DNA of 64,000 nt. Source: a virus. Lineage: Duplodnaviria > Heunggongvirae > Uroviricota > Caudoviricetes. The translations under genes were made by a program, and so were the position numbers. The stretch spans positions 33,214-97,213 of the IMG/VR virus record IMGVR_UViG_3300028048_000100. One strand, written 5' to 3'. This document shows, piece by piece, positions 11,780 through 52,680 of the stretch; the stretch's first letter is position 1; each line of letters begins with the position of its first letter. Below the pieces are notes generated by a model. The model made no database searches and was not told the DNA's origin. It worked only from the letters and a program-made list of their open reading frames with translations.

Positions 11780-11780
11780 A

Positions 11781-12236: not shown

Positions 12237-12242
12237 AATCAT

Positions 12243-22666: not shown

Positions 22667-22667
22667 T

Positions 22668-25218: not shown

Positions 25219-25578
25219 TTAGAATATGAGTATATTTTCTACACCGGTTAATTTGATGTAGTTATCACGAATCTCATCTACAAATTGGCTTGCCAAACTC
25301 TCTGTACTTTGAGTGATTGGGAAGCTAATTTTTTTGCTCATGTGATATGGAGCACGAACAAGGCATACACCTGCATTTGGATCACAGAGTACTGCATTGA
25401 CATGGAAGTACTCAGCCATAAACGCCAGGAAACTCGAATGTCTCAATTGAACTGTAGTTTCTGAATGCTCCCTGAGGTTTTTATCTATAGCATCTGTAGC
25501 GAGGTTGATTAGTTTATCTCGCCAATGCAGATCAAAGTACTGTCGACGCTCTATTGCTATGTCACTGTCCTGGATCAT
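25219..25578 (-). CDS. IQD-leader paralog family protein
   Basis: N-term MIQDSDIAIERRQ. Confidence 0.7.
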   Translation of the reverse strand: MIQDSDIAIERRQYFDLHWRDKLINLATDAIDKNLREHSETTVQLRHSSFLAFMAEYFHVNAVLCDPNAGVCLVRAPYHMSKKISFPITQSTESLASQFVDEIRDNYIKLTGVENILIF

Positions 25579-25892
25579 TTAGGCACTACTATCTTTGTTG
25601 TTTTTAGCTTTTCAAATTCTTTGTATGCAAATTCTTTAAACATCTCCAGATCACCATGTCCTCTGTAGTTTTCGTAATCGATCTTTAGTGTGACTTTGTA
25701 CGGGATATTCTTATGTACATCATCATTATATGCATATATAACAATATACAAGTATTTAGGCACATCTATAGAGCATGCCTCAAGATCTTGAAATACACCG
25801 ATCTTACGTTGGACCTCTTCCGCAGCCTTCTCTGCACACAACGTCCAGAATTTATGACCAACCAATATGTCTTGATCAGTGTCTTGTATCAT
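25575..25892 (-). CDS. IQD-leader paralog family protein
   Basis: MIQDTDQDILVGH at an internal Met. The ORF track extends to 25928, which would give ATGA coupling; which start is used is uncertain. Confidence 0.6.
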   Translation of the reverse strand: MIQDTDQDILVGHKFWTLCAEKAAEEVQRKIGVFQDLEACSIDVPKYLYIVIYAYNDDVHKNIPYKVTLKIDYENYRGHGDLEMFKEFAYKEFEKLKTTKIVVPK

Positions 25893-25924
25893 TTCTTTGC
25901 AATTACTTGTTTTCTTGTTTCGTA

Positions 25925-26323
25925 TCAATCTGGTGAGAGTATGAAGGTTTTTGTCGGGTCCTTTATCATTGTTGGATATAAGGACGCAAAGTCATTTACA
26001 CCCTTAAAAACAACCTCGGTGTATGCAAAATCTACGATGTTCTTATTCCAAGGGACATCGGTGATTTTATCGTATAGCTGTTGAACTATTTGGTCAATCA
26101 GAACATCTAGACCAAATGTTACCCAGTTTAGTGGGAATGTGATGGATGCTTGTTTATGCGATGCAGTCGATCGATCACCAAATACCACCTGCTCTTCAAT
26201 CACTAGACCCATGCTGGTTGGGTTCTCGATGATCCAACCATATAGAAACTCACGCAGTTTGTGATCCCGCATCATCAGCAAGTCGCTTTTGCTCAATATG
26301 CCTTCGTCGGTATCTTGTATCAT
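25925..26323 (-). CDS. IQD-leader paralog family protein
   Basis: N-term MIQDTDEGILSKS. Confidence 0.7.
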   Translation of the reverse strand: MIQDTDEGILSKSDLLMMRDHKLREFLYGWIIENPTSMGLVIEEQVVFGDRSTASHKQASITFPLNWVTFGLDVLIDQIVQQLYDKITDVPWNKNIVDFAYTEVVFKGVNDFASLYPTMIKDPTKTFILSPD

Positions 26324-26676
26324 GAGATATTGTATTTAATCACAGAGTTAACACCCATCTCTTTCTTAGCCCGGTAATGTTCCTCCCTGTCTTTAAGGAG
26401 CTTGCGTATTTTGTTTGGATCCGTTGCGTCAAATAAACCACCTTTATAGAAATGGGAGGAGGCCCGGACCACATCTATGTCAAAGTAGTTCAACAGCTTT
26501 ATGGTCCAATCGTCCATTTTGCCGTTCTCAAAATTATGCTCAAGCTCCATCACACGCGATGAGTAGCTAATATTAGCATATTCTACGATTTTTGCCACAG
26601 CCTCCTCACGCATCCGTTCTTGGAAGAGAATACGGCTGTTGTCATCTAATATTTTTGAATCATCATCTTGAATCAT
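26320..26676 (-). CDS. IQD-leader paralog family protein
   Basis: N-term MIQDDDSKILDDN. Confidence 0.7.
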   Translation of the reverse strand: MIQDDDSKILDDNSRILFQERMREEAVAKIVEYANISYSSRVMELEHNFENGKMDDWTIKLLNYFDIDVVRASSHFYKGGLFDATDPNKIRKLLKDREEHYRAKKEMGVNSVIKYNIS

Positions 26677-27011
26677 TAGTCATATTTAAAATCAAACAAC
26701 ACATCAATAGCTCCGCAACCAGCTGCAGCATTCATCACCTGGGTTGCAAATTTTTTAGCGCATTCTTCTTCACTTAGATCAAAATCATAGTAAATATTTT
26801 CTCTCCTGAGGAGTTTGAACCCATTAGAGTAGCAACCTAGAGGAGCCGGAGGATTGGGTACAAAGTATCTCACGTCTGCCGCACTAAATAAGAGATTAGA
26901 CTTCTCATGATGTAGCCGATGGAAGTGAACAGCATGTTCGTATGCCCGCTGGTATATCTTATATTGATCACCTCGAGCATTAGCAATACTTTTGTCCGAA
27001 TCTTGTATCAT
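26676..27011 (-). CDS. IQD-leader paralog family protein
   Basis: N-term MIQDSDKSIANAR; the promoter motif abuts its ATG. Confidence 0.7.
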   Translation of the reverse strand: MIQDSDKSIANARGDQYKIYQRAYEHAVHFHRLHHEKSNLLFSAADVRYFVPNPPAPLGCYSNGFKLLRRENIYYDFDLSEEECAKKFATQVMNAAAGCGAIDVLFDFKYD

Positions 27012-27045
27012 GTATCTATATACAAAGAAAACGAAAAACTTTAGG
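27012..27045 (-). promoter_or_regulatory. conserved phage promoter-like motif
   Basis: The minus strand reads CCTAAAGTTTTTCgttttctttGTATATAGATAC directly fused to ATGATACAAGAT. Confidence 0.5.
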
Positions 27046-27334
27046 AAAGAATTAAACAGAGATTGTTTGTTCGAACTAATTCGTCTATCTCATCGACAGT
27101 CAAGTCAAATTGTTCATTTAGAGATTTAATGATGAAGTCACACATCTTATTAACTAAGTCATCTCCAGCAACTACACTGTACAACTTGTTTTTAATCATA
27201 GACATCTCGAAGGTTATCTTACTCCCAGACCTACGTTCGTCGAGCCGATTGAACTCCACGAAATCCTTAACGATGTTACGCAATGCTAGACCATTACATC
27301 GATCTAAAACCTGTTTTTCACCATCCTGGATCAT
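27041..27334 (-). CDS. IQD-leader paralog family protein (variant MIQDGEKQVL)
   Basis: N-term MIQDGEKQVLDRC. Confidence 0.65.
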   Translation of the reverse strand: MIQDGEKQVLDRCNGLALRNIVKDFVEFNRLDERRSGSKITFEMSMIKNKLYSVVAGDDLVNKMCDFIIKSLNEQFDLTVDEIDELVRTNNLCLILS

Positions 27335-27723
27335 TTGTTTTTATAATAATTCCACAAGTCATCAGTTAGTGGCTGAAATTGGTGATAATCGTACGAATGT
27401 TCTTCTATCTGTCGCATCACCTCCCTAAATACATAATCAGCACACATATCGGCTGATTCTGTTGTGCCATTTAAAAACACTTGGTGACTTTGGTTGAATG
27501 TAATAGTCAAAGGACTCTTACTACGAAATACGACCCATATGTCCACTTGAAATGGAAATCTATCTGTTCGTTGCAGTACGCCTTTTTCAGTCTCACATGG
27601 ATCGAAACGAGAGTCCATGTAACGCTGTGCTATCCAATAATTCGCTTGCATACGAAACGAATCTTTAAGAGTCTCAGCCCAAGCCATGAACTCATTAGGT
27701 ATGTTATCTACGTCTTGGATCAT
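27331..27723 (-). CDS. IQD-leader paralog family protein
   Basis: Internal Met gives MIQDVDNIPNEF. The track ORF begins 7 codons earlier, at 27744. Confidence 0.6.
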   Translation of the reverse strand: MIQDVDNIPNEFMAWAETLKDSFRMQANYWIAQRYMDSRFDPCETEKGVLQRTDRFPFQVDIWVVFRSKSPLTITFNQSHQVFLNGTTESADMCADYVFREVMRQIEEHSYDYHQFQPLTDDLWNYYKNK

Positions 27724-28162
27724 AGTTCCTGAGATACTTTTCAATTATGTTCGTTATAGCTGCACTTTTATCCATCGCATCTCTGTTGATGGATTCAAGT
27801 GTGAACTCATTACTTCTTATTTCAGCAGCCAAATTAGCAGCTTTGACAAAATATTCCAGTTGGCCTTGATTGTACATAGATACTGTTTCACTGAGGGATC
27901 CTGAGTCTATGTATGAGTCGCCGTATTTAGTTGTCACATATTTGGGGTAGTATATATGCCCTCCGAACATGCGCGGATACTCTTTAATTGAACTGAACGT
28001 CTCAAAAACCACACAATCGTATCCAGCCTTGTCCTTGAATATCCATCTATTTCCAGATTCGGTCATCTCATATTCAAAGCCATGGCTGAAAAGGCTCTCA
28101 TTAGTTATCGGTAAGTTATCGATAATGTCCTGTTCAACTTGCTCATCAGTATCTTGTATCAT
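27704..28162 (-). CDS. IQD-leader paralog family protein (152 aa); intact copy of a tandem duplicate
   Basis: N-term MIQDTDEQVEQDIIDNLPITNESLF. The body is homologous to the split ORFs at 28167-28581. Confidence 0.7.
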   Translation of the reverse strand: MIQDTDEQVEQDIIDNLPITNESLFSHGFEYEMTESGNRWIFKDKAGYDCVVFETFSSIKEYPRMFGGHIYYPKYVTTKYGDSYIDSGSLSETVSMYNQGQLEYFVKAANLAAEIRSNEFTLESINRDAMDKSAAITNIIEKYLRNYDPRRR

Positions 28163-28166
28163 AACG

Positions 28167-28581
28167 TCACCCTTTCCAAAGGTAATCGGTTATTTCCTCG
28201 TTTAACTCCTTACTCTCTTGGGCAATGTACATTCTCAGTTTAGCAGCACGATGAGCTAATCTGATAAAACGCTCAAGTTGACCCTTCGTATATAAGTATG
28301 TTTTTCTAGTGTCTGATTTGACTGACCCTGGGCCTATCGAATGCTGCAACTGAGGGTAGGGGGATATTACATACGAGTTTACGTGGATAACCGTTTATCA
28401 AGCTGTCTCGTATGAGAAGTACATTCTCGTACCCAGATACATCTTTATAGACCCAACAGTTTTCAGGATTGGTGTTTGATATTCCTTTAAAATACAACCC
28501 ATTCCTGAAAAGATCGGCGTTTGTTATAGGCAGGTTATCTATAACATCTTTTTCCACTTGTTCATCACTTGCTTGTATCAT
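28167..28581 (-). pseudogene. frameshifted tandem duplicate of the 27704-28162 gene (IQD-leader family)
   Basis: ORF 28306-28581 (MIQASDEQVEKDVIDNLPITNADLF…GYPRKL) aligns to the N-terminal half of 27704-28162. ORF 28167-28349, in another frame (…GQLERFIRLAHRAAKLR), aligns to the C-terminal half (GQLEYFVKAANLAAEIR). The two frames overlap at 28306-28349. Confidence 0.5.
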
Positions 28582-28934
28582 AACACCACCTCCGTTACTA
28601 ATACCCTCATCTTACCACGCATATGACTATATCCTCGATTGATTCCACGGACATCGTATTGTCTGTTATATCGAGACCGAACATGCACTGTTTTGCCTAT
28701 GAGTACTATATCTTTTCTCGACATCCCTATAGGAGTCTCGTCAAAAATCACATCATCAGGATCCGCGTACACAGCCCAGGCTATAGGTGTCGATTGGAGA
28801 TCTACATATTGCTTATCTGATGCAAGCATATCCACAACCTCCATACCCAAGCTGTCGCGCAAGAACTCTTCAGTGAGGCGAAACATCTTACTATCTCGTT
28901 CTTCTAATATGTCCTTGTCATTTTGCTGAATCAT
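28578..28934 (-). CDS. IQD-leader paralog family protein (variant MIQQNDKDIL)
   Basis: N-term MIQQNDKDILEER. Confidence 0.65.
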   Translation of the reverse strand: MIQQNDKDILEERDSKMFRLTEEFLRDSLGMEVVDMLASDKQYVDLQSTPIAWAVYADPDDVIFDETPIGMSRKDIVLIGKTVHVRSRYNRQYDVRGINRGYSHMRGKMRVLVTEVVL

Positions 28935-29365
28935 ATCATATATCGTTCGCCGCTTTTAAGACGTGCCTTGACTGAGTAGTTTCCCAAATCAGTGTCATAA
29001 CCCCATTCCATAATGAAGTCCATGATTTTCTGAAAGTAGAACTCTGTGAGTGCATTAAGTTCTAATTTGTACATCTTGCGCTCCCGGTTAGTGTCTTGGA
29101 ATGAGATCTTGAACTGGAGAGGGCCGGTAATGTGGTGAAGCTCTTCATCAGTGATGCGAATCCCAGCATACTTATAGTTGACGTGATAGGTGATCTTGAC
29201 TTTTAGAGGCCATTTGCACCCACGTTTAGTTATGCCCCACTTGACATCGTCTTTAGTATTGTAAAACGACCCGAGTTCGCTTTTCAGTTGGCGTTTAAAG
29301 TTCTTGTAACCTTTCAATGCGCTAGCTGAATCTTTCAATAAGATATTGTCGTCTCCGGTAATCAT
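28931..29365 (-). CDS. IQD-leader paralog family protein (variant MITGDDNILL)
   Basis: N-term MITGDDNILLKDS; ATGA overlap with the upstream gene. Confidence 0.6.
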   Translation of the reverse strand: MITGDDNILLKDSASALKGYKNFKRQLKSELGSFYNTKDDVKWGITKRGCKWPLKVKITYHVNYKYAGIRITDEELHHITGPLQFKISFQDTNRERKMYKLELNALTEFYFQKIMDFIMEWGYDTDLGNYSVKARLKSGERYMI

Positions 29366-37790: not shown

Positions 37791-38243
37791 ATGGGACATG
37801 ATATTAAACAGCTTAAACCAAAACTAAATGGTCGCTATCAGCAGGGGTACATCAGGACCTCTGCTTGTAATAAACTGTTCAATTCTCAAAAGACCCAACC
37901 AGTTATCTATCGGTCTTCTTACGAAAAACGTTTCATCAGTTGGCTTGAGACGAACCCCAAAGTAAAGAAATGGGGTTCAGAATGTGCACCTATACCATAT
38001 ATGTATATCGACGGCTACATGCACAATTACTACCCAGATTTTATCGTTGAAATGACTAATGGGGATGTTTTGGTGATAGAAATCAAGCCATTTAATCAGA
38101 CTGTCAAACCAGATGAGGCTGATGACTACGCATACAACACATATGTTAAGAACATGTGCAAGTGGCAGGCAGCAAAAAAATTCTGTGATGATCGAAACAT
38201 GAAGTTCCAAATCGTCACAGAACGTACTATTTCTCGACTGTAA
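37791..38243 (+). CDS. hypothetical protein (150 aa)
   Basis: ORF 4 nt after the previous stop. Confidence 0.5.
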   Translation: MGHDIKQLKPKLNGRYQQGYIRTSACNKLFNSQKTQPVIYRSSYEKRFISWLETNPKVKKWGSECAPIPYMYIDGYMHNYYPDFIVEMTNGDVLVIEIKPFNQTVKPDEADDYAYNTYVKNMCKWQAAKKFCDDRNMKFQIVTERTISRL

Positions 38244-38834
38244 TCAATCTAACATCCAAATCTCTTCTGGTACTGATATTTCATATGTCCAACTCAGAGC
38301 TTTGAAGTCCATGCGATACTCTTTATTAGATTTTGTACCAGGACGTTTATCGTATGGTTTTTGGGCGTGTTTATCACGGAACCATACTCTAAATTGAATT
38401 TCCAGTCCACACACCTTGTATATCTGGTTTGAATCAAACTCTTTACTAGTCTTTTCAAACTCGACGTGTTTAGATTTTAGGTACTTTTCAAAACCTTCTC
38501 TCAATGCAGCACGGATGAAATTTTGGTTATCTATATCAACAGCTTCAAAGTCCTTGTTGTAATAGATGCTTGCATCATCGTGGTGAATAGATATGATGTA
38601 GTTCCACATATCATCCATATAGTACTTAACCGTGACACATTTCTTATTGATCCACTCATGACCGCGATTAGCAATAACCGGTTTACTCGCACCATTGACC
38701 TTACGAGAATCGATATGAAGTTGCTCGAAGAACTGATCCAGTGCTTCGCGTGCACGACGTTTGTCAATTTCGTTCTTGACTTTCTTGTCAATTACGTCGT
38801 CATTATCTTGTATGGCTTCCCAGAGTGTTCTCAT
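38244..38834 (-). CDS. IQD-leader paralog family protein, long-leader form (isolated copy)
   Basis: N-term MRTLWEAIQDNDDVIDKKV. Confidence 0.7.
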   Translation of the reverse strand: MRTLWEAIQDNDDVIDKKVKNEIDKRRAREALDQFFEQLHIDSRKVNGASKPVIANRGHEWINKKCVTVKYYMDDMWNYIISIHHDDASIYYNKDFEAVDIDNQNFIRAALREGFEKYLKSKHVEFEKTSKEFDSNQIYKVCGLEIQFRVWFRDKHAQKPYDKRPGTKSNKEYRMDFKALSWTYEISVPEEIWMLD

Positions 38835-39229
38835 TTCTTAAATTTTAACAGGAAATTTGTGTAAGTACCGCCGATCTCGAAGAATACATAATCAGCCTTC
38901 TCCCAAAGACCCTTGGAATTGTTGTATCCATAACTACCTACCTCATATAGCTCAGAGTCGTCAGCAAAGTAACTCTTGACGATCTCATAAACCTCTTCGT
39001 AGGTCATGCCCGGTTCAATACGAGCAGTAAGTATCTTAAACAAGCTATCCCAGAGTTTAGCAGGAGCCTTAACAAGCCAATCCAATGAATAATCTACAGA
39101 GTGTTCCTTAACATCCTTCTCGATGGCTTTCTTGTCGAGCAAACCGGACTTCTTGTTTAGATTTTTCCAAATGAGCTTTGCCTTTTGTGTATCAATAGCT
39201 TCGGTCAAGTATTCAGATAGACTTTTCAT
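38831..39229 (-). CDS. MKxL..LxE-leader family protein
   Basis: N-term MKSLSEYLTEAIDTQ; ATGA coupling. Confidence 0.55.
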   Translation of the reverse strand: MKSLSEYLTEAIDTQKAKLIWKNLNKKSGLLDKKAIEKDVKEHSVDYSLDWLVKAPAKLWDSLFKILTARIEPGMTYEEVYEIVKSYFADDSELYEVGSYGYNNSKGLWEKADYVFFEIGGTYTNFLLKFKK

Positions 39230-40896
39230 TATACTATATTGACTTTATTCATTTCTTTAGTTAATATATGTGCCTTGTATGGGCTAACTGTATAACCGAG
39301 CTTTGCCAATGTGTCACGGTTCAATAAGCAGTTTGTTGTCTTAGTATCGCGGTTATCAACAATACTGATATGTACGTCTTTAACCTTACGTAGACCGAGC
39401 TGTAACTCGGGGAGAACGATCACTGGTCTCTTGAAATGCTCTTCACCGGCAATAACCTTAGACTCTTTCACTTTCTCATAGCTAAACTTCTTGCCATCGA
39501 TAGTAAACTCAACAGTATTACCCTTATCTTCAAACTCACCAACCTCCAAACAAGTGGCATTAGTTGAGTTACCAGTGTCTAACTTAGCTAGGAACTCTTT
39601 TCTAACACCCTCACCAAAGTCGATAGTTACGCTCTCTACGTATCCGGCGGTTTTGTCTTGAAGCATGAACTCTGAAGGATCATCCAGCTCATTTAAGAGG
39701 ATGTTCACAAAGTTCTCCTTGATAACATCTGAGATACCATCTGTACCCGGCGATGCATTGATCTCCAATACGACGTTGTCGCCGATCTTTGGATTACTAC
39801 CCTTTACGAGTGGCATGATATCCACAGCACACCATGGCAAGTGTGACAGCTGTGCGGTGCGGAGTGCGATTTGTTCTTGCTCCTTAGTCAGCTTAACTGG
39901 TTCTGCTGTTGCACCGAGAGAAACATTTGAACGGAAGTCACCAGAGATCTTAACACGTTTCATACAAGCCAAGATCATCTGTTTATTACGAAGTGTGAGT
40001 ACATGAACACGAATATCACCCCCATCAGCCTCTTCTTTCTTTTGGATGATAAGCTTGCGCTCAGGATCGATGGCGAAGATCATTTGGAATATAGCCAATA
40101 TCTTCTTACCATCTACCATAGCTACACCAGTTCCACCATGGCCGTCTAGAATCTTAACAACGAACATCAACTCTTCGTTCTTATCCTGGTCCTTGTCACT
40201 CCATTCCGGATAAACCTCACGCATAGCATCATTATAGAGTTTCTCGTCATATAGAATCTCCTTAGTCATCAGTGTAAAGTTAGGCTGAGGAATCTCACCC
40301 TTCTGGAACAATACTGCTGAATCATACTTATTACATGCGAGTGCACTATACTGTACTGGATTGAGAACTAAGAAACCTCTATCCTGGAGCACCTTGACAA
40401 TATGTTCGCACTCATCTTCATCTTGCACGCCAAGACGTGAGAAGATCAAGGTGTCTAAGTTAGACTCTTTCTCAATAGTAAACTTCTCATCACCGTCAGT
40501 AATGACTATCTTGTTCTCATTCTCATCTGCGTCAATATCTGCTGCAACAAATACGTGAACCTCGGGGATAATCGGGCATTTTTGTTTCTTGAGAGTGTCA
40601 ACCGCATCGTAGATATTCTTTAATGTCTTGTTCTCCTTCGGGTCACGGTCATTAGTGAATACAACGATGTGTTTGAATATATTTTTACACTCTTTTGGAT
40701 GCTGTTCAGCATACGCTACCTCAAGTTCTTCTTTATTCTGAGCTTGTTTGGAAATTCGCTTTTGCTCTTTTTCCTTTTCCTTTTCTATTTCTGCGCGCTC
40801 TTTAGCAGATTTTTCCTCGAGCTTCTCTGTGATCATTTGGCGCACTTGGTCATCGTGCATCAGCGCATTCACATTGTGAAAATTTGAATAATCCAT
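39229..40896 (-). CDS. RimK-like ATP-grasp ligase fused to a C-terminal retropepsin-like domain (PF05618-type 'ATP-dependent Zn protease')
   Basis: 'FVVKILDGHGGTGVAMVDG', 'DIRVHVL' and 'GDFRSNVSLGATAEPVKLT' match RimK ATP-grasp motifs. The C-terminus carries 'LDTGNS…' and 'LLNRDTLAKLGYTV', which are aspartic-protease-like. Confidence 0.6.
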   Translation of the reverse strand: MDYSNFHNVNALMHDDQVRQMITEKLEEKSAKERAEIEKEKEKEQKRISKQAQNKEELEVAYAEQHPKECKNIFKHIVVFTNDRDPKENKTLKNIYDAVDTLKKQKCPIIPEVHVFVAADIDADENENKIVITDGDEKFTIEKESNLDTLIFSRLGVQDEDECEHIVKVLQDRGFLVLNPVQYSALACNKYDSAVLFQKGEIPQPNFTLMTKEILYDEKLYNDAMREVYPEWSDKDQDKNEELMFVVKILDGHGGTGVAMVDGKKILAIFQMIFAIDPERKLIIQKKEEADGGDIRVHVLTLRNKQMILACMKRVKISGDFRSNVSLGATAEPVKLTKEQEQIALRTAQLSHLPWCAVDIMPLVKGSNPKIGDNVVLEINASPGTDGISDVIKENFVNILLNELDDPSEFMLQDKTAGYVESVTIDFGEGVRKEFLAKLDTGNSTNATCLEVGEFEDKGNTVEFTIDGKKFSYEKVKESKVIAGEEHFKRPVIVLPELQLGLRKVKDVHISIVDNRDTKTTNCLLNRDTLAKLGYTVSPYKAHILTKEMNKVNIV

Positions 40897-42121: not shown

Positions 42122-43228
42122 ATGAATTCATTCATTGACGAAGTCATGGGCTTTGATTCAACGAGCCTTGACGTATTCCAAGAGAAACCCCAATCTAAGG
42201 GAAATGTAAACATCTACAAAACCAATCCTGCAGATTCTAAGGCAGAAGATGGTCACTACCACAGCAAAGTTCGTATTCTTTACAATCCATTGAACCTCAA
42301 ACGTTCAATTGTTCACCAGGCTGTCTATGTCCTCCACGACAAGCAAGGTACACTCATCGTGAAGTCATCTCTCGGCGATGGTGATAAGAGCTGTCCGTTG
42401 TTCACCGGCTGGAAAGCATTGCACTATGCAAAGATGCCAGACCCTGAAAATCCGACCAAGACCATCGACGACATGGAGAAGCGTGCATGGGGCGACGAAA
42501 AGTACGAGAAGAACGAGTCTGATTGGGCTCTTGTACAGATCCTCGAAGACGACAACAAGCCTGAGCTCGTCGGCCAGATCAAAGCTATGAAACTTCCAAA
42601 GGTTGTTCTCACCAAGCTGACCGCTAAGATGAACCCGAGTGCTGATTCCAAGAAGGCCCCAGTACCTGTCATGGACTATCTCATCGGTATTCCTTTGGAT
42701 ATCGACGTAACTCCAGGTCCGGATGATCCTAAGAATCCTCAGCGCAAGCAGCGCGAGATCAGCTACGATCTTTGCGATTTCGATACCGATTACGCTCCGA
42801 TCATGAAGGTTGACGGCACTCCACTGTTCACCGACGAGGAGATCGAGACTATCGATGCATTCAATGAGGCAAAGGCTCTGATCAACGGTAAGGCAAAGAC
42901 CGCAAAGGCAAAAGAGGACGCCGAGAAGAAGCTTGCCGGCATGACAGAGGCTGTTAAGGCTCTCTACCAGAAGGCACTCGACTACCTCAAGGATGAGGCT
43001 CACGTAATCGACCTCGTTGCAGAGTGTGGTTATACTCCGTGGAATCCTGAAGTATCCGAACGCGTATCCAAGTGGATTGCATCTATTGCAGCTATGAAAG
43101 ATCCGTTGGTAGAGGATATCAATGAGACCGCAGCTCCGGCAGCAGCAGAAGAAGCAACTACTGAAGCCGCTCCGGTGGAAGCAGCTGATCCGGCAGCGCA
43201 AATGGCCGCTGGTGACTTGCCTTTCTAA
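42122..43228 (+). CDS. single-stranded DNA-binding protein candidate
   Basis: Ala/Glu-rich C-terminal tail ending …AAGDLPF, as in the SSB DIPF tails. Sits in the replication gene neighbourhood. Confidence 0.45.
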   Translation: MNSFIDEVMGFDSTSLDVFQEKPQSKGNVNIYKTNPADSKAEDGHYHSKVRILYNPLNLKRSIVHQAVYVLHDKQGTLIVKSSLGDGDKSCPLFTGWKALHYAKMPDPENPTKTIDDMEKRAWGDEKYEKNESDWALVQILEDDNKPELVGQIKAMKLPKVVLTKLTAKMNPSADSKKAPVPVMDYLIGIPLDIDVTPGPDDPKNPQRKQREISYDLCDFDTDYAPIMKVDGTPLFTDEEIETIDAFNEAKALINGKAKTAKAKEDAEKKLAGMTEAVKALYQKALDYLKDEAHVIDLVAECGYTPWNPEVSERVSKWIASIAAMKDPLVEDINETAAPAAAEEATTEAAPVEAADPAAQMAAGDLPF

Positions 43229-43299: not shown

Positions 43300-43971
43300 T
43301 CAACCTTCATATGTACAAGTCTCCCAATCCCAGTTGCCTGCACCAGTGATTATAGAAGATAATTCTTCCGCAAGCTTCTTGGATGTGTTATCGTCTGCTA
43401 TCAGATAGAAGAACATGCCGTCATCTCCATCAGCAGTCAATAGGTAAACCTCGTCACCTTTATTGAGATCAAATTCATCGGATAACAACTCTTGTTGAGC
43501 GTAGGAGTCGTCCCACGGATAGTTTCCTAGGAACTTAGTACCATAGTCAACTCGCTTGTCTTCGATGTCTTTGCATACCTTACAAAGGTTCTTGATGAAT
43601 GGTTTATTAGATTTAGCCCAATCAGCATCAACGGATACATCATCCCATCGATCCCAATCCTCACCATTCTTAGTGTTGACATCGAATTTGGCTGCGAAAG
43701 ATATGATGGATTCAACGTTGGCTGCAGAAGACTCAATATGCTTATTAGATTCAACGAGTAAGCTTTCCTTTAGAAAATCCTTCAGGTCTTTCATCTTCTT
43801 CTTGGTTTTTTGCTTCTTAGCCTTTGCTTTGTCAGTATCCATACCTTGTGCGAGTGGTTCCGATAAAGTGTCTTCACCAGTTGGTCCCGGATTACCAGCA
43901 CCCATTGTGTTACCCGGTGTAGTATAGATACCGGCACCATCACACTCGAGATATGTTAGCAAACTTCGCAT
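43300..43971 (-). CDS. hypothetical protein (223 aa), begins MRSLL
   Basis: ORF with a Lys-rich patch (KAKAKKQKTKKK). Confidence 0.55.
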   Translation of the reverse strand: MRSLLTYLECDGAGIYTTPGNTMGAGNPGPTGEDTLSEPLAQGMDTDKAKAKKQKTKKKMKDLKDFLKESLLVESNKHIESSAANVESIISFAAKFDVNTKNGEDWDRWDDVSVDADWAKSNKPFIKNLCKVCKDIEDKRVDYGTKFLGNYPWDDSYAQQELLSDEFDLNKGDEVYLLTADGDDGMFFYLIADDNTSKKLAEELSSIITGAGNWDWETCTYEG

Positions 43972-44597
43972 TATTCCTCACCTGGTTCTGGATCAGCAGC
44001 TGGATCTGCTGGTTGTTCATCAGATACTTCAGTAACAGCAGTCTCATGAACAGATACCTTTACATAGATACCTGCGGGATCACCGGCTAGATCATAGAGT
44101 GGGTAAACAGCTTCCGGATCAAGCTCAGTTGCTTCTACGCGATATTTTTCACCAATCAGTGAAGGTTCTGGGTCTGGTTCGTTTGTTAACACTTCGACTT
44201 CGGTATAATCCTCGCCGCGGTCTACTACTTTAACAGTACCACGAGCCCATTCAGTAGTTGCCTCTTCGTCAGCGTATGAGACAAAGTCATAGAGCTCCTC
44301 TACTGGCTCCTCTGAAGAATCATCAGAGCTAGATCCTGCATCTGAGCTGTCTGAAGAATCAGAGCTATCTGAGCTTGAGCCTCCGTCTGAAGAATCGTCT
44401 GAAGAATCAGAGCTATCTGAGTTGTCGCCGAAGAAGTAATCGTAAGCAGCTACTTGAGTTACAGCGGCACGAGCAATCTTGCCACCTTCTGATTCAGCGT
44501 CATCTGGATCGATTACACCCTCTGCGATAGCAACGTTGACAGCAGGCTGTGTAATATAGTCTTCCAATTTGAGTTTTTCCTCATTATTTGCGTCCAT
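43971..44597 (-). CDS. highly acidic Ser/Asp-repeat protein
   Basis: …DSSDSSDDSSDGGSSSDSSDSSDSSDAGSSSDDSSEE… low-complexity core. The DNA carries direct repeats (tctgaagaatcagagctatctga, twice). Confidence 0.55.
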   Translation of the reverse strand: MDANNEEKLKLEDYITQPAVNVAIAEGVIDPDDAESEGGKIARAAVTQVAAYDYFFGDNSDSSDSSDDSSDGGSSSDSSDSSDSSDAGSSSDDSSEEPVEELYDFVSYADEEATTEWARGTVKVVDRGEDYTEVEVLTNEPDPEPSLIGEKYRVEATELDPEAVYPLYDLAGDPAGIYVKVSVHETAVTEVSDEQPADPAADPEPGEE

Positions 44598-44666: not shown

Positions 44667-47600
44667 ATGAAAGAGAACATATCACTTGAGCAATCATTAC
44701 AGGCGTATCGTGTAATGAATACTCCGACTGAGCTCTCGTGGAAGCAACACTGGGCCAAGGAAACATTCACGTGCGACAGCTACATAGACTGCTCCGACGA
44801 AGAGAAGGCGCAATTCAATAAGCGTCTGCAAGAGGGTGAGATCACTCTCGCTCCTATTAACTTGCCCGGCGGTCAGATGGGTGAACTTAGCACGCTACAA
44901 ACATTAGTTGAGCGGCTATACGATATTCGTTATAAGGACACCCCGAAGATTCGTCGTATGGTAATCTTCTCCTCTCGTACTGGTGAGCGACCTGCTGGTA
45001 AGAACCGCGCATTTGAACTATGGAACGGATTTCAGGTAATCGACTTGGATATCAAAGATGCAACAATGGCTAATAAGTTAAAGCAGCATCTGTTTGATAG
45101 CCTCAAGTCTTGCAACTGGTTCCTTGGTGTAGCCCTATCCTCATCTGGTAAGGGTTTGCATGTCTATACTAAGATTACGGTTCCAGAAGCTGATGCAGAT
45201 GACACTCGTAAGCGTAAGATGCTATATCTGACTAACTTCCGTCACAAATACTCTTATGTATATATCGTACTCAATAACGGGTGCAAGCAATTCGGATACA
45301 CCAAAGAGGATATCCTTAAGTGGATGGACTTGGCTATGTTCAAGCCACAGCAGGGCGCTTTCATTGGTTACGACCCTCATCCATTGATTAGTACTCATTA
45401 CTTTGAGGATTTCATTTACGTAAACTTCGACAACGAGCAGAGCATTGGTTCCGCTATGGACTGGCTGACATATCCAGATCTGAAAGAGATCTTTAAGAGA
45501 TGGGAGTGGTTTGAGGATGATGACCAGGCCGATATCAAGATTGAGGTCCAATCAGCAGGAGATTTGGAGTACGATACTAAGAACAAAGTACACTATAAGC
45601 ACAAAGAGCGTTGGCGTTTGGCTAATACCCTTGTAAAACTATATGGCATAGACAAGGGTTATCGTTATCTCCGCATGATATGCTCTAACTCAGTAAGTGA
45701 CAAAGAGCTGCAGGCGGACTGTATCACTGCGTCTCGCCACGACAAGCCTGTAGATGTGTGGGCTGTTAACCGATTGAACAGCCAGCATGGATTCAAGATC
45801 AAGCTCAATGTGCAGGCAGAACAGTTTGATGAGTCAGAGATATACAAATCAGTAGACAGCATTGACAATCCAACAATCATTCGCGAGTCTGAGAAACTAA
45901 TGACGTTTAATATTAAGAAGGATGAATATCTTGGTAATATTAAATGGCAACTATTGGCTAATATCGGGCGAGTTACTCTTATCGAGGCTGGTGCTGGTGT
46001 GGGCAAGACCGAAATGGTCAAGTCTCTAGTACGTGACGGCAAGAAGGTCGTTCTCGTTATGCCGTTTACATCTACTATTAAGTCTAAGGTAGAGGGCGAT
46101 AAGGACTGGTTATATGCGTATGGTAATCACAAGGTACGCCTCGATCAAACACCAGGTGTGGCCATGACTATTGATAAGTTCTCTCATCTCAATCTGATGG
46201 ATATCAAGGCATGTGGCTTCGACTATATCATCATAGACGAGTCTCACCTTATGTTTCAATCAGAATACCGACCTGTTATGACTCGCGTTATTGAGATGGT
46301 TCGTAACACAGAAGTGCCTATTATCCTCATGTCTGGTACTCCAAGTGGTGAGTTAGTATTCTTCCCAGATATCGTGCACCTCAAAGTTAATAAAGAGGAA
46401 ACACGTCAAAAGGAGTTTCATGTGTTCTTTACCCAGAGCAATGATGACTTAAAGATGTATATGTGCAAGGCGATGGCCAAGGACATTGCTGAAGGACGGC
46501 GCATTCTATTCCCGACAAATAAGGGTACACTATTTTCAAAGGAAATCAAGGCAGCAGTACAGTACTTCTTGGAGACTGACCATTTCTTATTTGATGAAGT
46601 CAAGCTGAACTATTACAAGAAGTCTAATGTGGGTGAGAAATTCATGGATGATGTCAACTTCCAGAAGACTATCAAGAAAACGCAGATACTAATGTGTTCG
46701 TCTTATCTATCTGTGGGTGTAGACATCCTCGATAAGTATAAGTTTGCTATCTACTTTGATGACTTGATGATGCCACAGGAGGTGGAGCAGTTTGCTAACC
46801 GCTTACGCTCAAACGACCTATTCATCAACTTATATGTGTCTCGGTTTGATTCGGACGGCAACTCCAAGAACCTCAACAAGTTCCGCGATATCAACTTCAA
46901 GTTGAATGATGAAGAGATAAAGAATATACACTCTATCCTCCGCATCTGCAACTCTATGATTGAACGTAACCCAGTAGAGTATCGGTACAATACGCTGATC
47001 AGCTCTATTGTAAATAGCAATAAATTCATTGAATACAATGAGATAGACAACAAGTACTACCTCAATGAGATTGCGTATAAGACTATTTACTTCGAGCGTA
47101 AATATCGAGAATATGTGCAACAATTGCCTGTACTTATGAAAGGCATGAAATCATATGGATACTTACTTTCTTCTAAGGATCTACCTGCATTTGAAAACAA
47201 GGAGATCATGGGAGATGTTAAGACCAAAAGCAAACAGGCATATGATGAGCAGGTAACACAGAACTCCGATGATATTATCGAACTCCTAGATCTTATCACA
47301 GAGGACCGTCTAGAACTATACAAAGATGTTATGGCCGGTCACTATGAGATCAAGAAGGGTCCAGAGTGGAAGGAGGATCCCGAGAACAAACTCATGATGG
47401 TGAAGAATATTGAGATGTTTGAAAAAGTGGTACCAATCTGCGTGTCCATGTCTAAGATGTTTACAGTGGAAGATATCAAGGACATATTTATGCACTGTAG
47501 AAGTAGAAATACATTCAACTTCGCTGCCATAGGACGTATTCGTATGCTAATCAACTTGGTTTATAACAATAAGATCAAGCGCTTGGACTTACCTATTCAA

Positions 47601-47999
47601 GAGTTTATGGAGAGTGTATACAAATTCTCTGAGCTGGGTACTGTACACAAGGCTGAGGTGTCTAAATTCATCCGCAACTTCGCAACCAAATACGCTATTA
47701 ACGCTTCTTCTATGGATATTATCATCACGCGATCTGAGATAACCATGAAGGAATTGATCGAGACATTCACCAATATGTTTAAGTGTTTGGTTGATGTATC
47801 TCGTCCAGATAAAGAAGGTAATGTCAAGCTTAAAAAAGTAGAGTTGTTGTGGAAGGAACGCGAGGAGTATAACCGTAGCGACGAGTATCAAGCAGAGAAA
47901 CTATTCGTACTGGCTGAGTTCTTACAGGGAGCGCAAATTCAAACGCAAGTTGTGGACGATTCCTCGGATGATTCCTCGGATGATTTTAACGTTGGTTGA
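44667..47999 (+). CDS. DNA primase (AEP/prim-pol) fused to an SF2 helicase
   Basis: AEP motifs 'VIDLDIKD' and 'SSSGKGLHVY'. Helicase Walker A 'EAGAGVGKTEM' and DExH 'IIIDESH'. C-terminal DDSSDDSSDD tail. Confidence 0.7.
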   Translation: MKENISLEQSLQAYRVMNTPTELSWKQHWAKETFTCDSYIDCSDEEKAQFNKRLQEGEITLAPINLPGGQMGELSTLQTLVERLYDIRYKDTPKIRRMVIFSSRTGERPAGKNRAFELWNGFQVIDLDIKDATMANKLKQHLFDSLKSCNWFLGVALSSSGKGLHVYTKITVPEADADDTRKRKMLYLTNFRHKYSYVYIVLNNGCKQFGYTKEDILKWMDLAMFKPQQGAFIGYDPHPLISTHYFEDFIYVNFDNEQSIGSAMDWLTYPDLKEIFKRWEWFEDDDQADIKIEVQSAGDLEYDTKNKVHYKHKERWRLANTLVKLYGIDKGYRYLRMICSNSVSDKELQADCITASRHDKPVDVWAVNRLNSQHGFKIKLNVQAEQFDESEIYKSVDSIDNPTIIRESEKLMTFNIKKDEYLGNIKWQLLANIGRVTLIEAGAGVGKTEMVKSLVRDGKKVVLVMPFTSTIKSKVEGDKDWLYAYGNHKVRLDQTPGVAMTIDKFSHLNLMDIKACGFDYIIIDESHLMFQSEYRPVMTRVIEMVRNTEVPIILMSGTPSGELVFFPDIVHLKVNKEETRQKEFHVFFTQSNDDLKMYMCKAMAKDIAEGRRILFPTNKGTLFSKEIKAAVQYFLETDHFLFDEVKLNYYKKSNVGEKFMDDVNFQKTIKKTQILMCSSYLSVGVDILDKYKFAIYFDDLMMPQEVEQFANRLRSNDLFINLYVSRFDSDGNSKNLNKFRDINFKLNDEEIKNIHSILRICNSMIERNPVEYRYNTLISSIVNSNKFIEYNEIDNKYYLNEIAYKTIYFERKYREYVQQLPVLMKGMKSYGYLLSSKDLPAFENKEIMGDVKTKSKQAYDEQVTQNSDDIIELLDLITEDRLELYKDVMAGHYEIKKGPEWKEDPENKLMMVKNIEMFEKVVPICVSMSKMFTVEDIKDIFMHCRSRNTFNFAAIGRIRMLINLVYNNKIKRLDLPIQEFMESVYKFSELGTVHKAEVSKFIRNFATKYAINASSMDIIITRSEITMKELIETFTNMFKCLVDVSRPDKEGNVKLKKVELLWKEREEYNRSDEYQAEKLFVLAEFLQGAQIQTQVVDDSSDDSSDDFNVG

Positions 48000-50503: not shown

Positions 50504-50534
50504 AAAAGAGGAGCTTAAAACTCCTCTTTTATTA
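50504..50534. terminator. bidirectional rho-independent terminator
   Basis: aaaagaggag-cttaaaa-ctcctctttt, flanked by A/T runs, between convergent genes. Confidence 0.65.
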
Positions 50535-50822
50535 TGCCTTCGCGCCAATCACTGAACCAACAACTGCACAAATTGTACGCGATGTTAGTATGTTATAGAT
50601 TGGCCCATCCGTTACGCCTAGTGCTTTACAAATGGCTTTCATGACAGATGCGCCGATTGTTGCGCCTGCTAGACCGCCTACTAATGAGCCCAAGAATCCT
50701 TCGTCTACGTTGTTCTCTTTGATCGCTTGTGCAATCTTATCAGATACCTCCTCGACTACTTTCTCGTCAATTGGTTCGTTTTTTGCCAGGCTTTCATTTA
50801 GTTTTTCAGATAATCCTTTCAT
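50532..50822 (-). CDS. MKxL..LxE-leader family; glycine-zipper small membrane protein
   Basis: N-term MKGLSEKLNESL. The C-terminus has GSLVGGLAGATIGASV and GSVIGAKA. Confidence 0.55.
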   Translation of the reverse strand: MKGLSEKLNESLAKNEPIDEKVVEEVSDKIAQAIKENNVDEGFLGSLVGGLAGATIGASVMKAICKALGVTDGPIYNILTSRTICAVVGSVIGAKA

Positions 50823-50832
50823 AGCTATTCGT

Positions 50833-51441
50833 TTATTGGCCCATCAGTTTGTAAACCAAGTCATGGTCTTCCAATGACATGTCTGTGTCTGCGATTGTGT
50901 AGATTGCAAAATAGTCATCCTTCTCCAAGAACTTGTCGAAGTTGCTCTTATTATGCTTGCGCAATTCACCTTCTTTGTCATATATGGTTGCGATTTGATT
51001 GGCAAGATTTTGAAGTACGCTGTCATCTATCTTTTTAGGATAGTCCGGGCAGTTAACCTTAGCACGCTTCTGGAGCACGTCGAGAATCATGGACTCTGCA
51101 GTAGCAGCATCGACTGATTCATTAACACTCTCTCGGATGCTCCATAGTTTGTGAATCTTGTCCTGATACTCCTGGTCGGCAGCATCTGCCATGCTAAGGA
51201 TATCGTCCTCTACATAACTAATGAATGAATCAACAGTCTTGTGGTTAAGGAGCTCCTCTTCGTTTTCATACCAGTCAAGCACTTCGTTAGCAAGATCACG
51301 AAGATCGTCATCACTCATATGGGCACGAGATTCCTTGTTCTTTGTTGCAAGAAGATCGAATATGGCTTTTTCAGCATCGGTATTGCTGATTCCACGCGCT
51401 TCGTTTAAGCTCTCAATGAGCATGTCTTTTAAATCCTTCAT
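50833..51441 (-). CDS. MKxL..LxE-leader family acidic protein
   Basis: N-term MKDLKDMLIESL. Confidence 0.55.
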   Translation of the reverse strand: MKDLKDMLIESLNEARGISNTDAEKAIFDLLATKNKESRAHMSDDDLRDLANEVLDWYENEEELLNHKTVDSFISYVEDDILSMADAADQEYQDKIHKLWSIRESVNESVDAATAESMILDVLQKRAKVNCPDYPKKIDDSVLQNLANQIATIYDKEGELRKHNKSNFDKFLEKDDYFAIYTIADTDMSLEDHDLVYKLMGQ

Positions 51442-51445
51442 GTCT

Positions 51446-52051
51446 TTATGACTTTATTCCGAAGAGCTTGCCGCAATCAGTTGCGACTGGCCCATAGCTT
51501 GGCTGCTGGCCTATTTCATTCTCGAGATTCTCGTCGTTGAATGGGATGATAACGATGTATTTCACGTCACTGTGTTTCCACATATCCTTAACAGCCTTGT
51601 CCACTTTTATCTGTAAACCCTCGTTGGTGTGTTCGCTCATGCTCTCGTTTAAAAACTCGACTAAGCTTCTCATCGGTTTATCTGCACTCTCTCTCAATAC
51701 TTTGAGTTTATACAGGGTAGAATCGATAAGAGATAGAATGGCATCCACATCACTCTTGAGCTCGTCTTCTTTGAGGAACTTTTTGCCATCCTCAGCCAGT
51801 TCTCTGAGTGATTCGAGGTATTCGATAGCATTCATCTTATCAGTTGACATCACATTCTTGAGGTTCTTAACCACACCATGAATGCCCTGATACTCTTCGA
51901 TGAGTGAATCTACGAGATCAACAACCTTTTCATAGAACTCATTTAGAGCAATGTGCGAACTATATTTGTCGGTCTTGAGATGGGCTTTCCAGGCTTCTAC
52001 CATAGAACCCTGAAGTGTTCCTAAATATTCTTCAATCGTTTCAACTTTCAT
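51446..52051 (-). CDS. hypothetical acidic protein (201 aa)
   Basis: N-term MKVETIEEYL. Lies in the same coupled block. Confidence 0.55.
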   Translation of the reverse strand: MKVETIEEYLGTLQGSMVEAWKAHLKTDKYSSHIALNEFYEKVVDLVDSLIEEYQGIHGVVKNLKNVMSTDKMNAIEYLESLRELAEDGKKFLKEDELKSDVDAILSLIDSTLYKLKVLRESADKPMRSLVEFLNESMSEHTNEGLQIKVDKAVKDMWKHSDVKYIVIIPFNDENLENEIGQQPSYGPVATDCGKLFGIKS

Positions 52052-52063
52052 ACCTTTTGTTTC

Positions 52064-52408
52064 TTATTTCAGACAGATGTATGACACGTTATTAACTACC
52101 TTAACATCCTGAGGCTTCATACTCAATAGAGCTGAGTACTCATCATCGTCAGTGCCAAGTAGATCTTGATAATCCTCGATCGAATTGAACGCAACAACAA
52201 ACACTGCACCTTCGTATTGATCAAAGGAGAGGAATGCACGCTTGTACTTCTTGAAACCTTCTGCTGCATCGAGAGTAGTATATGCTGCCCCCTTGGAAGC
52301 TTCCCATTGAATTGCATTTGCAAGGGGTTGTTTTTCCTCGTTTATGTCATTTGTATTTTGCTCATTGACTTCGAGCTGCTCTTTCAGCATTTCACCTAGA
52401 TCCTTCAT
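52064..52408 (-). CDS. MKxL..LxE-leader family protein
   Basis: N-term MKDLGEMLKEQL. Confidence 0.55.
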   Translation of the reverse strand: MKDLGEMLKEQLEVNEQNTNDINEEKQPLANAIQWEASKGAAYTTLDAAEGFKKYKRAFLSFDQYEGAVFVVAFNSIEDYQDLLGTDDDEYSALLSMKPQDVKVVNNVSYICLK

Positions 52409-52410
52409 GA

Positions 52411-52680
52411 TTATTTGATGATATTTTTAGCCCAATCAATGTGTTTGTCGATATCGTATTCTTTTGCAATTTTCTCGAGGGTATCCTTTACTTCTTTGTG
52501 AGTAAACTCGATACCTTCATCATCCCATGCGTCTTTGAGACCCTGAGTGATGCGTTCTTCCAGAATATATTGCAAAGATTTCCAACCTCTACGTTCGTTG
52601 ACGTCGGTATGAGGAGTCTCCTGGTTGTCATCTTGTTTAACACCCAAGGATTCTTTCAATGTTTCTTCTAGACTTTTCAT
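52411..52680 (-). CDS. MKxL..LxE-leader family protein
   Basis: N-term MKSLEETLKESL. Confidence 0.55.
   Translation of the reverse strand: MKSLEETLKESLGVKQDDNQETPHTDVNERRGWKSLQYILEERITQGLKDAWDDEGIEFTHKEVKDTLEKIAKEYDIDKHIDWAKNIIK

Follow-up and report, generated by a model that had tools for sequence, protein, structure and literature searches.

The stretch of DNA analysed here (the window, 64,000 nucleotides in full) comes from a phage of the class Caudoviricetes and corresponds to positions 33,214 to 97,213 of the IMG/VR record IMGVR_UViG_3300028048_000100. On its minus strand an open reading frame (ORF) at 39229–40896 begins with ATG and encodes a protein of 555 amino acids (aa); the translation was checked, and the coordinates are exactly those of an original prediction made from the sequence. 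That prediction described a phage protein in which a RimK-like ATP-grasp ligase is joined to a PF05618/retropepsin-like domain, and comparisons of sequence, profile and fold all uphold it, with the catalytic residues intact. All of its quoted motifs are found in the ORF, namely VVKILDGHGGTGV (residues 246–258), DIRVHV (294–299), GDFRSNVSLGATAEPV (319–334) and DTGN (440–443). The parts of the protein, starting at the N terminus, are itemized in Table 1. An AlphaFold2 (AF2) model calculated from a diverse alignment of 39 fusion sequences has a mean predicted local distance difference test score (pLDDT) of 89 and a predicted template modelling score of 0.83. It supersedes a first model based upon a shallow alignment (≥68% identity), for which the pLDDT was 60. 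Conservation is given below as counts over the 39 aligned fusions unless another number is stated.

Table 1. Parts of the fusion protein and the gene directly downstream, in window coordinates (the arrow marks a putative cleavage site)
Feature	Position	Strand	Description
Whole gene	39229..40896	minus	Leader, linker, RimK-type ATP-grasp and RimB/PF05618-like domain; stop codon 39229–39231
Leader, residues 1–24, MDYSNFHNVNALMHDDQVRQMITE	40825..40896	minus	Putative capsid-targeting/prohead-protease (L/I-x-E↓) motif; conserved Y3, V9, L12, [IL]22-x-E24
Lys/Glu-rich helical linker, residues 25–72	40681..40824	minus	Variable in length and sequence; from charge composition, model and alignment columns
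Pre-ATP-grasp N-domain, residues 73–205	40282..40680	minus	Putative acceptor (poly-Glu) contacts T81, T91, R154 (= RimK S7, S14, R64) and K190 (= K100)
Central and C-terminal ATP-grasp domains, residues 206–405	39682..40281	minus	From HMMER alignment to 7qyr/7qys and alignment to E. coli RimK
ATP/Mg residues, window = RimK			K248 = K141; D294/R296 = D187/R189; R322-S-N324 = R211-S-N213; Mg ligands D359/E378/N380 = D248/E260/N262
RimB/PF05618-like retropepsin-fold domain, residues 406–555	39232..39681	minus	Core ~415–540; profile and fold matches
D440-T-G-N443 active-site motif	39568..39579	minus	Aligned to DTGA of 9g59/2pma/9g58
Downstream 132-aa gene	38831..39229	minus	N-terminus MKSLSEYLTE↓A, like a capsid-targeting sequence; ATG overlaps the fusion stop (TAATG); context, outside the enzyme

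The ligase half is matched by the Pfam RimK family PF08443 over residues 245–397 with E = 2e-20 and 73.7 bits, against a gathering cutoff of 21, and the ATP-grasp assignment is thus far above chance. The original prediction had proposed a hidden Markov model scan as its check, and for the ATP-grasp part this is the answer. In NCBIfam every one of the leading matches is an alpha-L-glutamate ligase, with MptN and rimK_fam highest at 88 bits and RimK, CofF and LysX behind them, and the PHROGs assignment of the protein is phrog_2599, ‘ribosomal protein S6 glutaminyl transferase’. In the Protein Data Bank (PDB) the top match is RimK both by sequence (HMMER) and by fold (Foldseek). The RimK structures 5zct, 7qys, 7qyr, 4iwx and 5zk6 are neighbours of the AF2 model with template modelling (TM) scores of 0.80–0.84, where ~330 columns are aligned and the score is normalized to the RimK chain of ~290 residues; lower scores are obtained for ArgX/LysX, at ~0.77, and for the ligases MdnC and PsnB, which act on ribosomally synthesized and post-translationally modified peptides (RiPPs), at 0.58–0.73.

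Residues 73–205 form an alpha/beta pre-ATP-grasp domain (pLDDT > 90) that superposes on the N-domain of RimK. The original prediction had read the N-terminal ~150 residues as a charged coiled-coil, which does not hold for this section. The sole stretch resembling a charged coiled-coil is a Lys/Glu-rich helix at residues ~25–60; charged residues (Glu, Lys, Asp and Arg) make up 56% of residues 16–60. Within it the linker helix at 31–56 is modelled with pLDDT of 51–73, and its alignment columns are poorly conserved among homologs. From the model, residues ~73 to 405 are predicted to comprise a complete three-domain RimK-type ligase.

The ATP-binding and metal-binding residues of the ATP-grasp, upon which the original prediction also turned, are present and are conserved in 38–39 of the fusions at identities down to 24%; the exception is S323 (27/39). 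In Pseudomonas aeruginosa RimK the residues touching bound penta-glutamate are S7, R8, S14, R64, S68, R189 and N262 (PMC10092738). Five of these seven contacts are kept, as T81 (S7, here Thr or Ser), T91 (S14, likewise Thr or Ser), R154 (R64), R296 (R189) and N380 (N262). The equivalent of S68 is variable in the fusions, and is Ala in E. coli RimK too.

A ligase of this kind might instead have free glutamate or a small molecule as its substrate, the product being free poly-alpha-Glu, a peptide resembling glutathione or a cofactor bearing glutamate, with the C-terminal domain sizing or recycling the product. RimK makes free poly-alpha-Glu in vitro and is stimulated by RimB, the top NCBIfam match is the cofactor ligase MptN with CofF scoring too, and the homolog in Pelagibacter phage Mosig is annotated ‘putative glutathione synthetase’; the window protein also has a match to the Pfam family GSH-S_ATP at E = 7e-11. 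That match is weaker than the RimK match and partial, however (42 versus 74 bits), and GshB is a poor match in the PDB (E = 0.22). MptN and CofF take their substrates from methanogen and F420 pathways, whose presence in these hosts is unlikely, and the protein-tail contacts R64 and R189 of RimK are kept. A small-molecule product is accordingly considered unlikely.

The C-terminal domain is beta-rich and well modelled (pLDDT ~90). With the single window sequence Pfam PF05618 gives no match even at E ≤ 10, whether the whole protein or residues 405–555 are searched, and a Pfam scan of the N-terminal 149 aa and the C-terminal 151 aa as single sequences finds nothing meaningful. A blank scan was the outcome that the original prediction had named as counting against its PF05618 assignment, and taken to the letter that is what this search returned. 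The missing match is due to limited search sensitivity and not to an absence of homology; the profile of the family matches PF05618 structures at E ~1e-12, and at this level the assignment stands. When the 151-aa domain was searched exhaustively with HMMER, 92 cluster representatives were obtained, from which giant proteins with multi-stretch matches (P0140, P0153 and P0173) were discarded as RTX or low-complexity repeats. PF05618 is reached by 18 of 42 relatives of the domain on their own (E ≤ 0.01), and some fusions with the order RimK then RimB (K→B) exceed its gathering score of 27 bits over the whole domain (31.6 bits for P0188 and 32.7 for P0193). A profile built from 33 domain relatives matches 9g59 (E = 4.4e-13), 2pma (6.5e-13) and 9g58 (1.1e-11) in the PDB over profile positions 3–127 of 135. 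In this alignment AKLDTGN lies on AK[LM]DTGA and RPVI on RPV[IV], and the DR...L[LI]xR...VDP block is matched. HIV-1 protease was matched at TM ~0.61–0.66 on the target already with the first, poor AF2 model, and the good model matches stand-alone phage proteins annotated as ‘acid protease’ or ‘zinc protease’ (PF05618-like) at 0.69–0.75. It is from the PF05618 matches of its relatives, the profile matches and the fold matches that the C-terminal domain is called, by homology, a genuine RimB/RloA-type retropepsin-like domain.

The active-site motif is strongly conserved, with D440 in 38, Thr in 37, Gly in 38 and Asn in all 39 of the fusions. D440 is equivalent to D31 of RimB and D48 of RloA, the catalytic aspartates that are essential in those enzymes. 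The basic residues K46, R114 and R137 that coordinate poly-Glu in RloA correspond to K438 (36/39), R490 (36/39) and R516 (20/39), as mapped by the spacing from the catalytic Asp of 2pma together with the motif alignment, and R527 corresponds to the GR-motif arginine of bacterial PF05618 proteins. Two changes are specific to the clade; the residue following DTG is an invariant Asn where the bacterial proteins have Ala, and L-x-N-R takes the place of L-x-G-R.

These changes could signify that the domain is not a protease, but a built-in activator, an oligomerization module or a substrate-binding module. RimB has a second, non-proteolytic role in stimulating the ATPase activity and poly-Glu synthesis of RimK, the active bacterial enzymes have DTGA and GR where the fusions have DTGN and NR, and R516 is kept in only about half of the sequences. 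However, it is difficult to see why, in the absence of catalysis, D-T-G would be retained in 37–38 of 39 fusions at identities as low as 24%, along with K438 and R490, even though the ‘fireman's grip’ is also structural. A purely non-catalytic role is rather improbable.

Relatives of the fusion are numerous. A public protein collection contains more than 1,900, and the best 120 are all full-length fusions. In IMG/VR there are at least 551 confirmed relatives, mostly on contigs of 100–430 kb, and nearly all span both domains in the same order. The architecture and the DTGN motif are identical in two cultured carriers, Pelagibacter phage Mosig and Yersinia phage YerA41; megablast of the region returned no close DNA match among cultured phages. 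In a set of 185,579 species-representative genomes the degenerate pattern AK[LF]DTGNG occurs at 55 sites, about as expected by chance, of which seven are true relatives, all on contigs of metagenome-assembled genomes (MAGs); this cellular count is a lower bound, because the degenerate DNA pattern misses DTGNS variants. Given at least 551 relatives in IMG/VR against seven MAG contigs, the K→B clade appears from these sequence searches to be essentially viral.

In two of the species-representative ‘bacterial genomes’ the phage fusion is present on a contig of ~400 kb and is 50% identical. One is ONIZ01000001.1 (L107; ‘uncultured Firmicutes bacterium RUG343’, 410,106 bp), the size of which is shared with the viral record IMGVR_UViG_2799112330_000002, and the other is CADBGE010000001.1 (L122; RUG13941, 400,076 bp). 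Both are probably megaphages that have been binned as bacterial MAGs. Two further relatives, P0199 (631 aa) and P0209 (618 aa), are triple fusions in which an N-terminal Acb1-like/2H phosphoesterase domain (PF23474, 31.5 and 25.1 bits) precedes the RimK ATP-grasp and the PF05618-like domain. In some phages the RimK–RimB module is thereby tied to a domain of the type that counters the cyclic-oligonucleotide-based antiphage signalling system (CBASS).

In the window the fusion gene lies head-to-head with a gene for a flap endonuclease (FEN)/RNase H-like protein, with a gene resembling that for single-stranded DNA-binding protein (SSB) and a helicase-primase gene nearby. Over 86 loci the genes most often found beside the fusion are those for replication. 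Loci of the T4-like subgroup run gp45, gp44, gp62, regA and then the fusion, with gp43 close by, and regA occupies position −1 in 18 of 20 such loci. No conserved small partner gene was found over the 86 loci. The placement among genes of nucleotide metabolism and replication might be taken to indicate DNA hypermodification, in which the enzyme attaches an amino acid to a modified base. The DNA of YerA41 has a thymidine modification of ~1 kDa, and Mom-like genes lie near the homolog in one locus (L004). But the modification in YerA41 looks to be an oligosaccharide, the carriers are for the most part ordinary T4-like phages, and a poly-Glu protease domain would have no role in such a pathway. 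Of the explanations weighed here, this is the least probable, with hardly any likelihood attached to it.

We favour, with roughly even confidence, a bifunctional enzyme for reversible alpha-polyglutamylation that would both build and trim oligo-alpha-glutamate tails on the C-terminus of a protein, most plausibly the host ribosomal protein bS6 (RpsF). Every characterized PF05618 enzyme (RimB, RloA and the RimB part of the RimBK hybrid) cuts poly-Glu (PMC11957791, PMC11957051), the ligase half has characterized close relatives that all couple an amino acid (in most cases L-Glu) to the carboxylate of a glutamate, and both halves keep their catalytic residues and most of those that bind poly-Glu; hence the suggestion that the protein is a writer and an eraser in one chain. 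RimB shortens the tails that RimK adds to RpsF and also stimulates RimK (PMC11957791, PMC11957051), while RloA cleaves runs of at least eight Glu (PMC11957051). No ORF of the window contains four or more consecutive Glu residues, so that a poly-Glu substrate would need to arise post-translationally, and the fused ligase is its obvious source. The homolog in YerA41 (gp066, annotated ‘structural protein’; formerly g112, ‘ribosomal protein modification protein’) is middle-expressed, which is supporting context. The original prediction had also proposed that the fusion modifies proteins post-translationally, typically with poly-Glu. This is the best-supported reading of the chemistry, and one that we infer; homology, fold, conservation of residues, spread among phages and gene context are established here, and the use of glutamate, proteolysis, pairing of the protease domains and the acceptor belong to the proposal.

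In the mechanism proposed, the ATP-grasp half (residues 73–405) would use ATP and Mg to add L-glutamate serially to the C-terminal glutamate of an acceptor protein. The RimB-type domain (~415–540) would pair with a second copy inside the expected RimK-like oligomer, and the paired retropepsin domains would cut oligo-Glu chains. They would probably stimulate the ligase too, as free RimB does RimK, and ligase and protease would jointly set the length of the tail. If the acceptor is host bS6, the phage would retune the ribosomes of its host while the replication genes are being expressed.

Several points weigh against this assignment. For the K→B clade as a whole it draws upon sequence and predicted structure, and the bacterial RimBK hybrid exhibited protease activity but did not glutamylate RpsF in vitro (PMC11957791). 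The NCBIfam scores fall under the curated cutoffs (88.1 against 143.4 bits for rimK_fam TIGR00768, 51.6 against 331 for the RimK equivalog NF007764 and 88.2 against 350 for MptN). Judged by those cutoffs the protein is a divergent relative and no RimK orthologue, and substrate specificity can shift within the superfamily. The poly-Glu contact R8 of RimK aligns to N82, with a basic residue two positions on in only 21 of the fusions. The Asn of DTGN and the substitution of NR for GR are changes beside the active site. A conserved neighbour with a Glu-Glu terminus, as might be expected of an acceptor, is absent from the 86 loci, where 15 of 1209 ORFs end in this way, about as many as by chance.

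A few kb from the fusion gene of YerA41 are YerA41_074 (L001 8859–9212) and YerA41_070 (L001 6635–7009), for which the depositors note a LysW-like small protein and a mono-ADP-ribosylating toxin. LysW is a carrier whose C-terminal Glu accepts from LysX, a ligase of the RimK family. The LysW-like protein of YerA41 could be a phage-encoded acceptor.

Ahead of the linker, the N-terminal leader is conserved at particular positions in the close family of the window protein (Y3 in 28/28, V9 in 23/28, L12 in 23/28, [IL]22 in 22/28 and E24 in 25/28) within variable surroundings. Residues 21–25 read MITE↓K in the window protein, and likewise in its close family. In the T4-like subgroup nearly every homolog starts with ...[FY]x[DES]F[IL]xE[AS]K... 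directly ahead of the first beta-strand, as exemplified by MQVSKFKEFINEAKK, MEKFKSFITEAKD and MKTFNEIISEAT, and by MQVQPFKNYLEEAT of Mosig; further examples in the family are MQVSKFKEFINE↓AKK, MEKFKSFITE↓AKD and MKTFNEIISE↓AT. These resemble the capsid-targeting sequence (CTS) of T4, MKTYQEFIAE, which undergoes a single cleavage and is enough to load foreign proteins into heads (PMC8442874, PMC3012670). A CTS-type motif is found within the first 30 aa of 48 of 75 distinct fusion N-termini, compared with 117 of 1018 other ORFs of the same loci (11.5%), 4 of 75 when residues 31–60 of the fusions are taken, and a mean of 3.7 of 75 for shuffled N-termini. The nominal p-value of the enrichment, 4e-24, is inflated by kinship among the sequences. 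In 36 of the 48 CTS-type leaders the residue after the motif Glu is Ala or Ser.

The chemistry might thus be the same and its delivery different. The leader would send the enzyme into the prohead core, the prohead protease would cut after [IL]-x-E, and the enzyme would be injected with the DNA to act upon host targets at once, like Alt of T4. The frequency of the motif above that in background ORFs and shuffled sequences, and the retention of [IL]22-x-E24 in the close family inside a variable region, are in keeping with this. Same-strand genes at positions +1 to +5 carry MKxLxEYIxE leaders in the window (MKSLSEYLTEA) and in the loci L006, L014–L017 and L021; that of the window, the 132-aa gene, is absent in an 83%-identical relative (L005). 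A T4-type gp23 capsid protein is encoded on a contig whose fusion is 72% identical, and g112 of YerA41 was detected in purified virions by liquid chromatography coupled to tandem mass spectrometry, as one of 63 particle-associated proteins. Yet the same list holds many replication enzymes, so the virion proteome is permissive and the detection is weak evidence. With so short a motif in sequences that are kin, the statistics overstate their independence, and the strict motif is missing from 27 of the 75 N-termini. The gene lies in replication modules and not head modules, and the leader could be helical and serve to pack against the enzyme or to bring about oligomerization. Delivery within the particle is therefore a minority possibility, though one of some substance. 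A fuller version, to which we give slightly less weight, is that the fusion is a virion-packaged effector; the T4-like leader would load it into the prohead, the protease would trim it, and immediately upon injection it would write and edit polyglutamate tails on host bS6 or another host protein, the genes with MKxLxEYIxE leaders encoding co-packaged cargo. It would then, if true, be a protein polyglutamylase delivered by a phage, the first of its kind.

The window also contains large families of small genes with conserved leaders. About 30, often overlapping by a few bases, lie at 6551–14077 and 25219–29365 on the minus strand; they start MIQ[DESNT][DSNT][DE]..[VI] and are diverse beyond, and form a very large paralog or cassette array. 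A second family begins MR[TP]LWEAIQD[NST]D, which is the MIQD leader with a prefix, and is located at 14164–14739, 15273–15779, 38244–38834 and 61362–61943 on the minus strand, with six members in tandem on the plus strand at 20708–23602. MRTLWEAIQD is in register with MKTYQEFIAE of T4, having identical M1, T3, E6 and I8 and similar residues at positions 2 (Lys/Arg) and 10 (Glu/Asp). The MR[TP]LWEAIQD leaders could mark dozens of capsid-targeted cargo proteins, or could merely be a recombination or translation-initiation cassette; from this register, the MRTLWEAIQD-leader proteins might be the same cargo as that proposed above. A third leader type, MK[SDG]L.E.L.E[SA], resembles the T4 CTS and occurs on the minus strand at 50532–52680, 38831–39229, 16408–17181 and 43300–43971, with examples MKGLSEKLNES, MKDLKDMLIES, MKDLGEMLKEQ and MKSLEETLKES. 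It is carried by four of five adjacent small genes at 50.5–52.7 kb, in the manner of the T4 internal-protein cluster.

An enzyme in such a setting might belong to a RiPP-like system, in which the ATP-grasp modifies leader-tagged small proteins and the protease domain removes the leaders. The graspetide ligases MdnC and PsnB are among the structural neighbours, conserved N-termini mark dozens of small paralogs in the window, and two leader-tagged genes downstream are translationally coupled. But RimK is clearly the better fold match (TM of 0.84 at best), and PF05618 enzymes are poly-Glu specific. Of the 86 loci, the MIQD and MRTLWEAIQD families lie beside the fusion only in the window (0 of 85 others), both of the downstream leader genes are missing from L005, and the family thrives in T4-like marine phages that have no such arrays. 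This explanation is very improbable. The original prediction had speculated that the enzyme acts on the leader-tagged proteins; because these families are absent at the 85 other loci and the downstream genes are missing from L005, that link of enzyme and substrate is unsupported, and the RiPP-type ligases are a poorer fold match than RimK besides. It is the T4 CTS-like leader that recurs, both on the enzyme and on genes directly downstream, and this suggests shared packaging, which is the more economical connection, if any exists, between the enzyme and the leader genes.

The remaining genes around the fusion are of several kinds. That at 42122–43228 on the plus strand adjoins the FEN gene and encodes 368 aa with no Pfam match, an Ala/Glu-rich tail and the C-terminus ...AAGDLPF, which resembles the acidic tail tip of SSB (DDDIPF type); it is 65–77% conserved in relatives and is likely to be the phage SSB. 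The gene at 44667–47999 (plus strand) encodes a helicase(-primase) of 1110 aa with a BT4734-like N-terminal domain, the closest cultured relatives of which are gp68 of Sphingomonas phage PAU and the helicases of Tenacibaculum phages PTm1 and PTm5 (27% identity). It sets this phage distantly with the ~220-kb jumbo phages PAU, PTm1 and MA9V, and this affinity of sequence hints at a host of Bacteroidota type. Between these two genes, at 43971–44597 on the minus strand, is an acidic protein of 208 aa ending ...PEPGEE. It was considered as an RpsF-style substrate and rejected, the tail being unconserved (the L005 homolog has 95 aa and ends ...DDAV). The protein is very acidic, with a Ser/Asp-rich low-complexity stretch (DSSDSSDDSSDGGSSSDSSDSSDSSD), and its N-terminal ~50 aa alone are conserved in L005 (6646–6933); it might be a protein of DNA-mimic type. 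The ORF at 37791–38243 (plus), which separates structural-looking genes from the fusion operon and is opposite to them in strand, encodes a TnsA-like/endonuclease I-like nuclease of 150 aa (PF08722, E = 1e-16) that is present in L005 too and is possibly a homing or accessory endonuclease. A PADLOC scan gave no defence-system match.

Polyglutamylation of bS6 by RimK, with trimming by RimB, is among the few known bacterial ways to retune the proteome at the ribosome, and nearly all work on its biology has been done in Pseudomonas and E. coli. That large phages commonly encode a compact writer and eraser in one, from the marine T4-like phages that infect SAR11 relatives to the jumbo phages of gut and rumen, would suggest routine use in takeover of the host. 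Mosig and YerA41 are cultured systems in which phage polyglutamylation could be examined, and the single-chain enzyme could become a tool to install and size poly-Glu tags. Should the capsid-targeting interpretation be true, a new enzymatic class would join the few proteins that phages inject with their DNA.

RimK-like phage genes have been annotated before, and a bacterial RimB–RimK hybrid of the opposite order has been published. In the searchable literature we found no account in which viral K→B fusions form a large, conserved clade marked by DTGN and by a leader resembling the CTS. The other phage RimK-like genes (PHROG 2599, for example in cyanophage S-RIM12, and Methylophilales phage Melnitz) are likewise RimK-family ATP-grasp genes of large phages, but the match spans the ATP-grasp part alone (query residues 133–395). 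Most of the fusions resemble the T4 internal proteins and Alt (PMC8442874, PMC3012670) in an N-terminal pattern, aromatic-x-x-hydrophobic-[IL]-x-E with Ala or Ser next, and those T4 proteins are a possible precedent for an injected enzyme; the likeness is one of a short motif, with no homology past the leader.

The closest solved structures to the C-terminal domain are the RloA secreted retropepsin-like proteases (PF05618; 9g58/9g59; PMC11957051) and lpg0085 of Legionella (2pma), with a common fold and the DTG, RP[VI]I and DR motifs. The RloA proteins are secreted, stand-alone, poly-Glu-specific enzymes with signal peptides, whereas the phage domain is fused and predicted to be cytoplasmic. 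RimK and RimB of Pseudomonas, encoded in the rimABK operon (RimK 7qyr/7qys; E. coli 4iwx/5zct), are members of the two families joined here; the best match to residues 73–405 is RimK, whose ATP, Mg and most poly-Glu contacts are kept, as are the catalytic Asp and the poly-Glu-binding Lys/Arg residues of the RimB type. The phage protein differs in being a single, phage-encoded polypeptide with ~20% identity to RimK, with DTGN and NR in place of DTGA and GR, and with the extra N-terminal leader and Lys/Glu-rich linker; no RimA/cyclic di-GMP partner was seen for it. The bacterial RimBK hybrid (DP2392 of Desulfotalea psychrophila; mostly in Flavobacteriales and Rhodobacterales; PMC11957791) is likewise a single chain of RimB-like and RimK-like parts, the protease half of which is active on poly-Glu tails. 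However, RimBK is cellular and has RimB at the N terminus, whereas in all 39 aligned fusions, and in Mosig and YerA41, RimK comes first and RimB second, and the group is essentially viral. The opposite order of the domains implies an independent fusion event.

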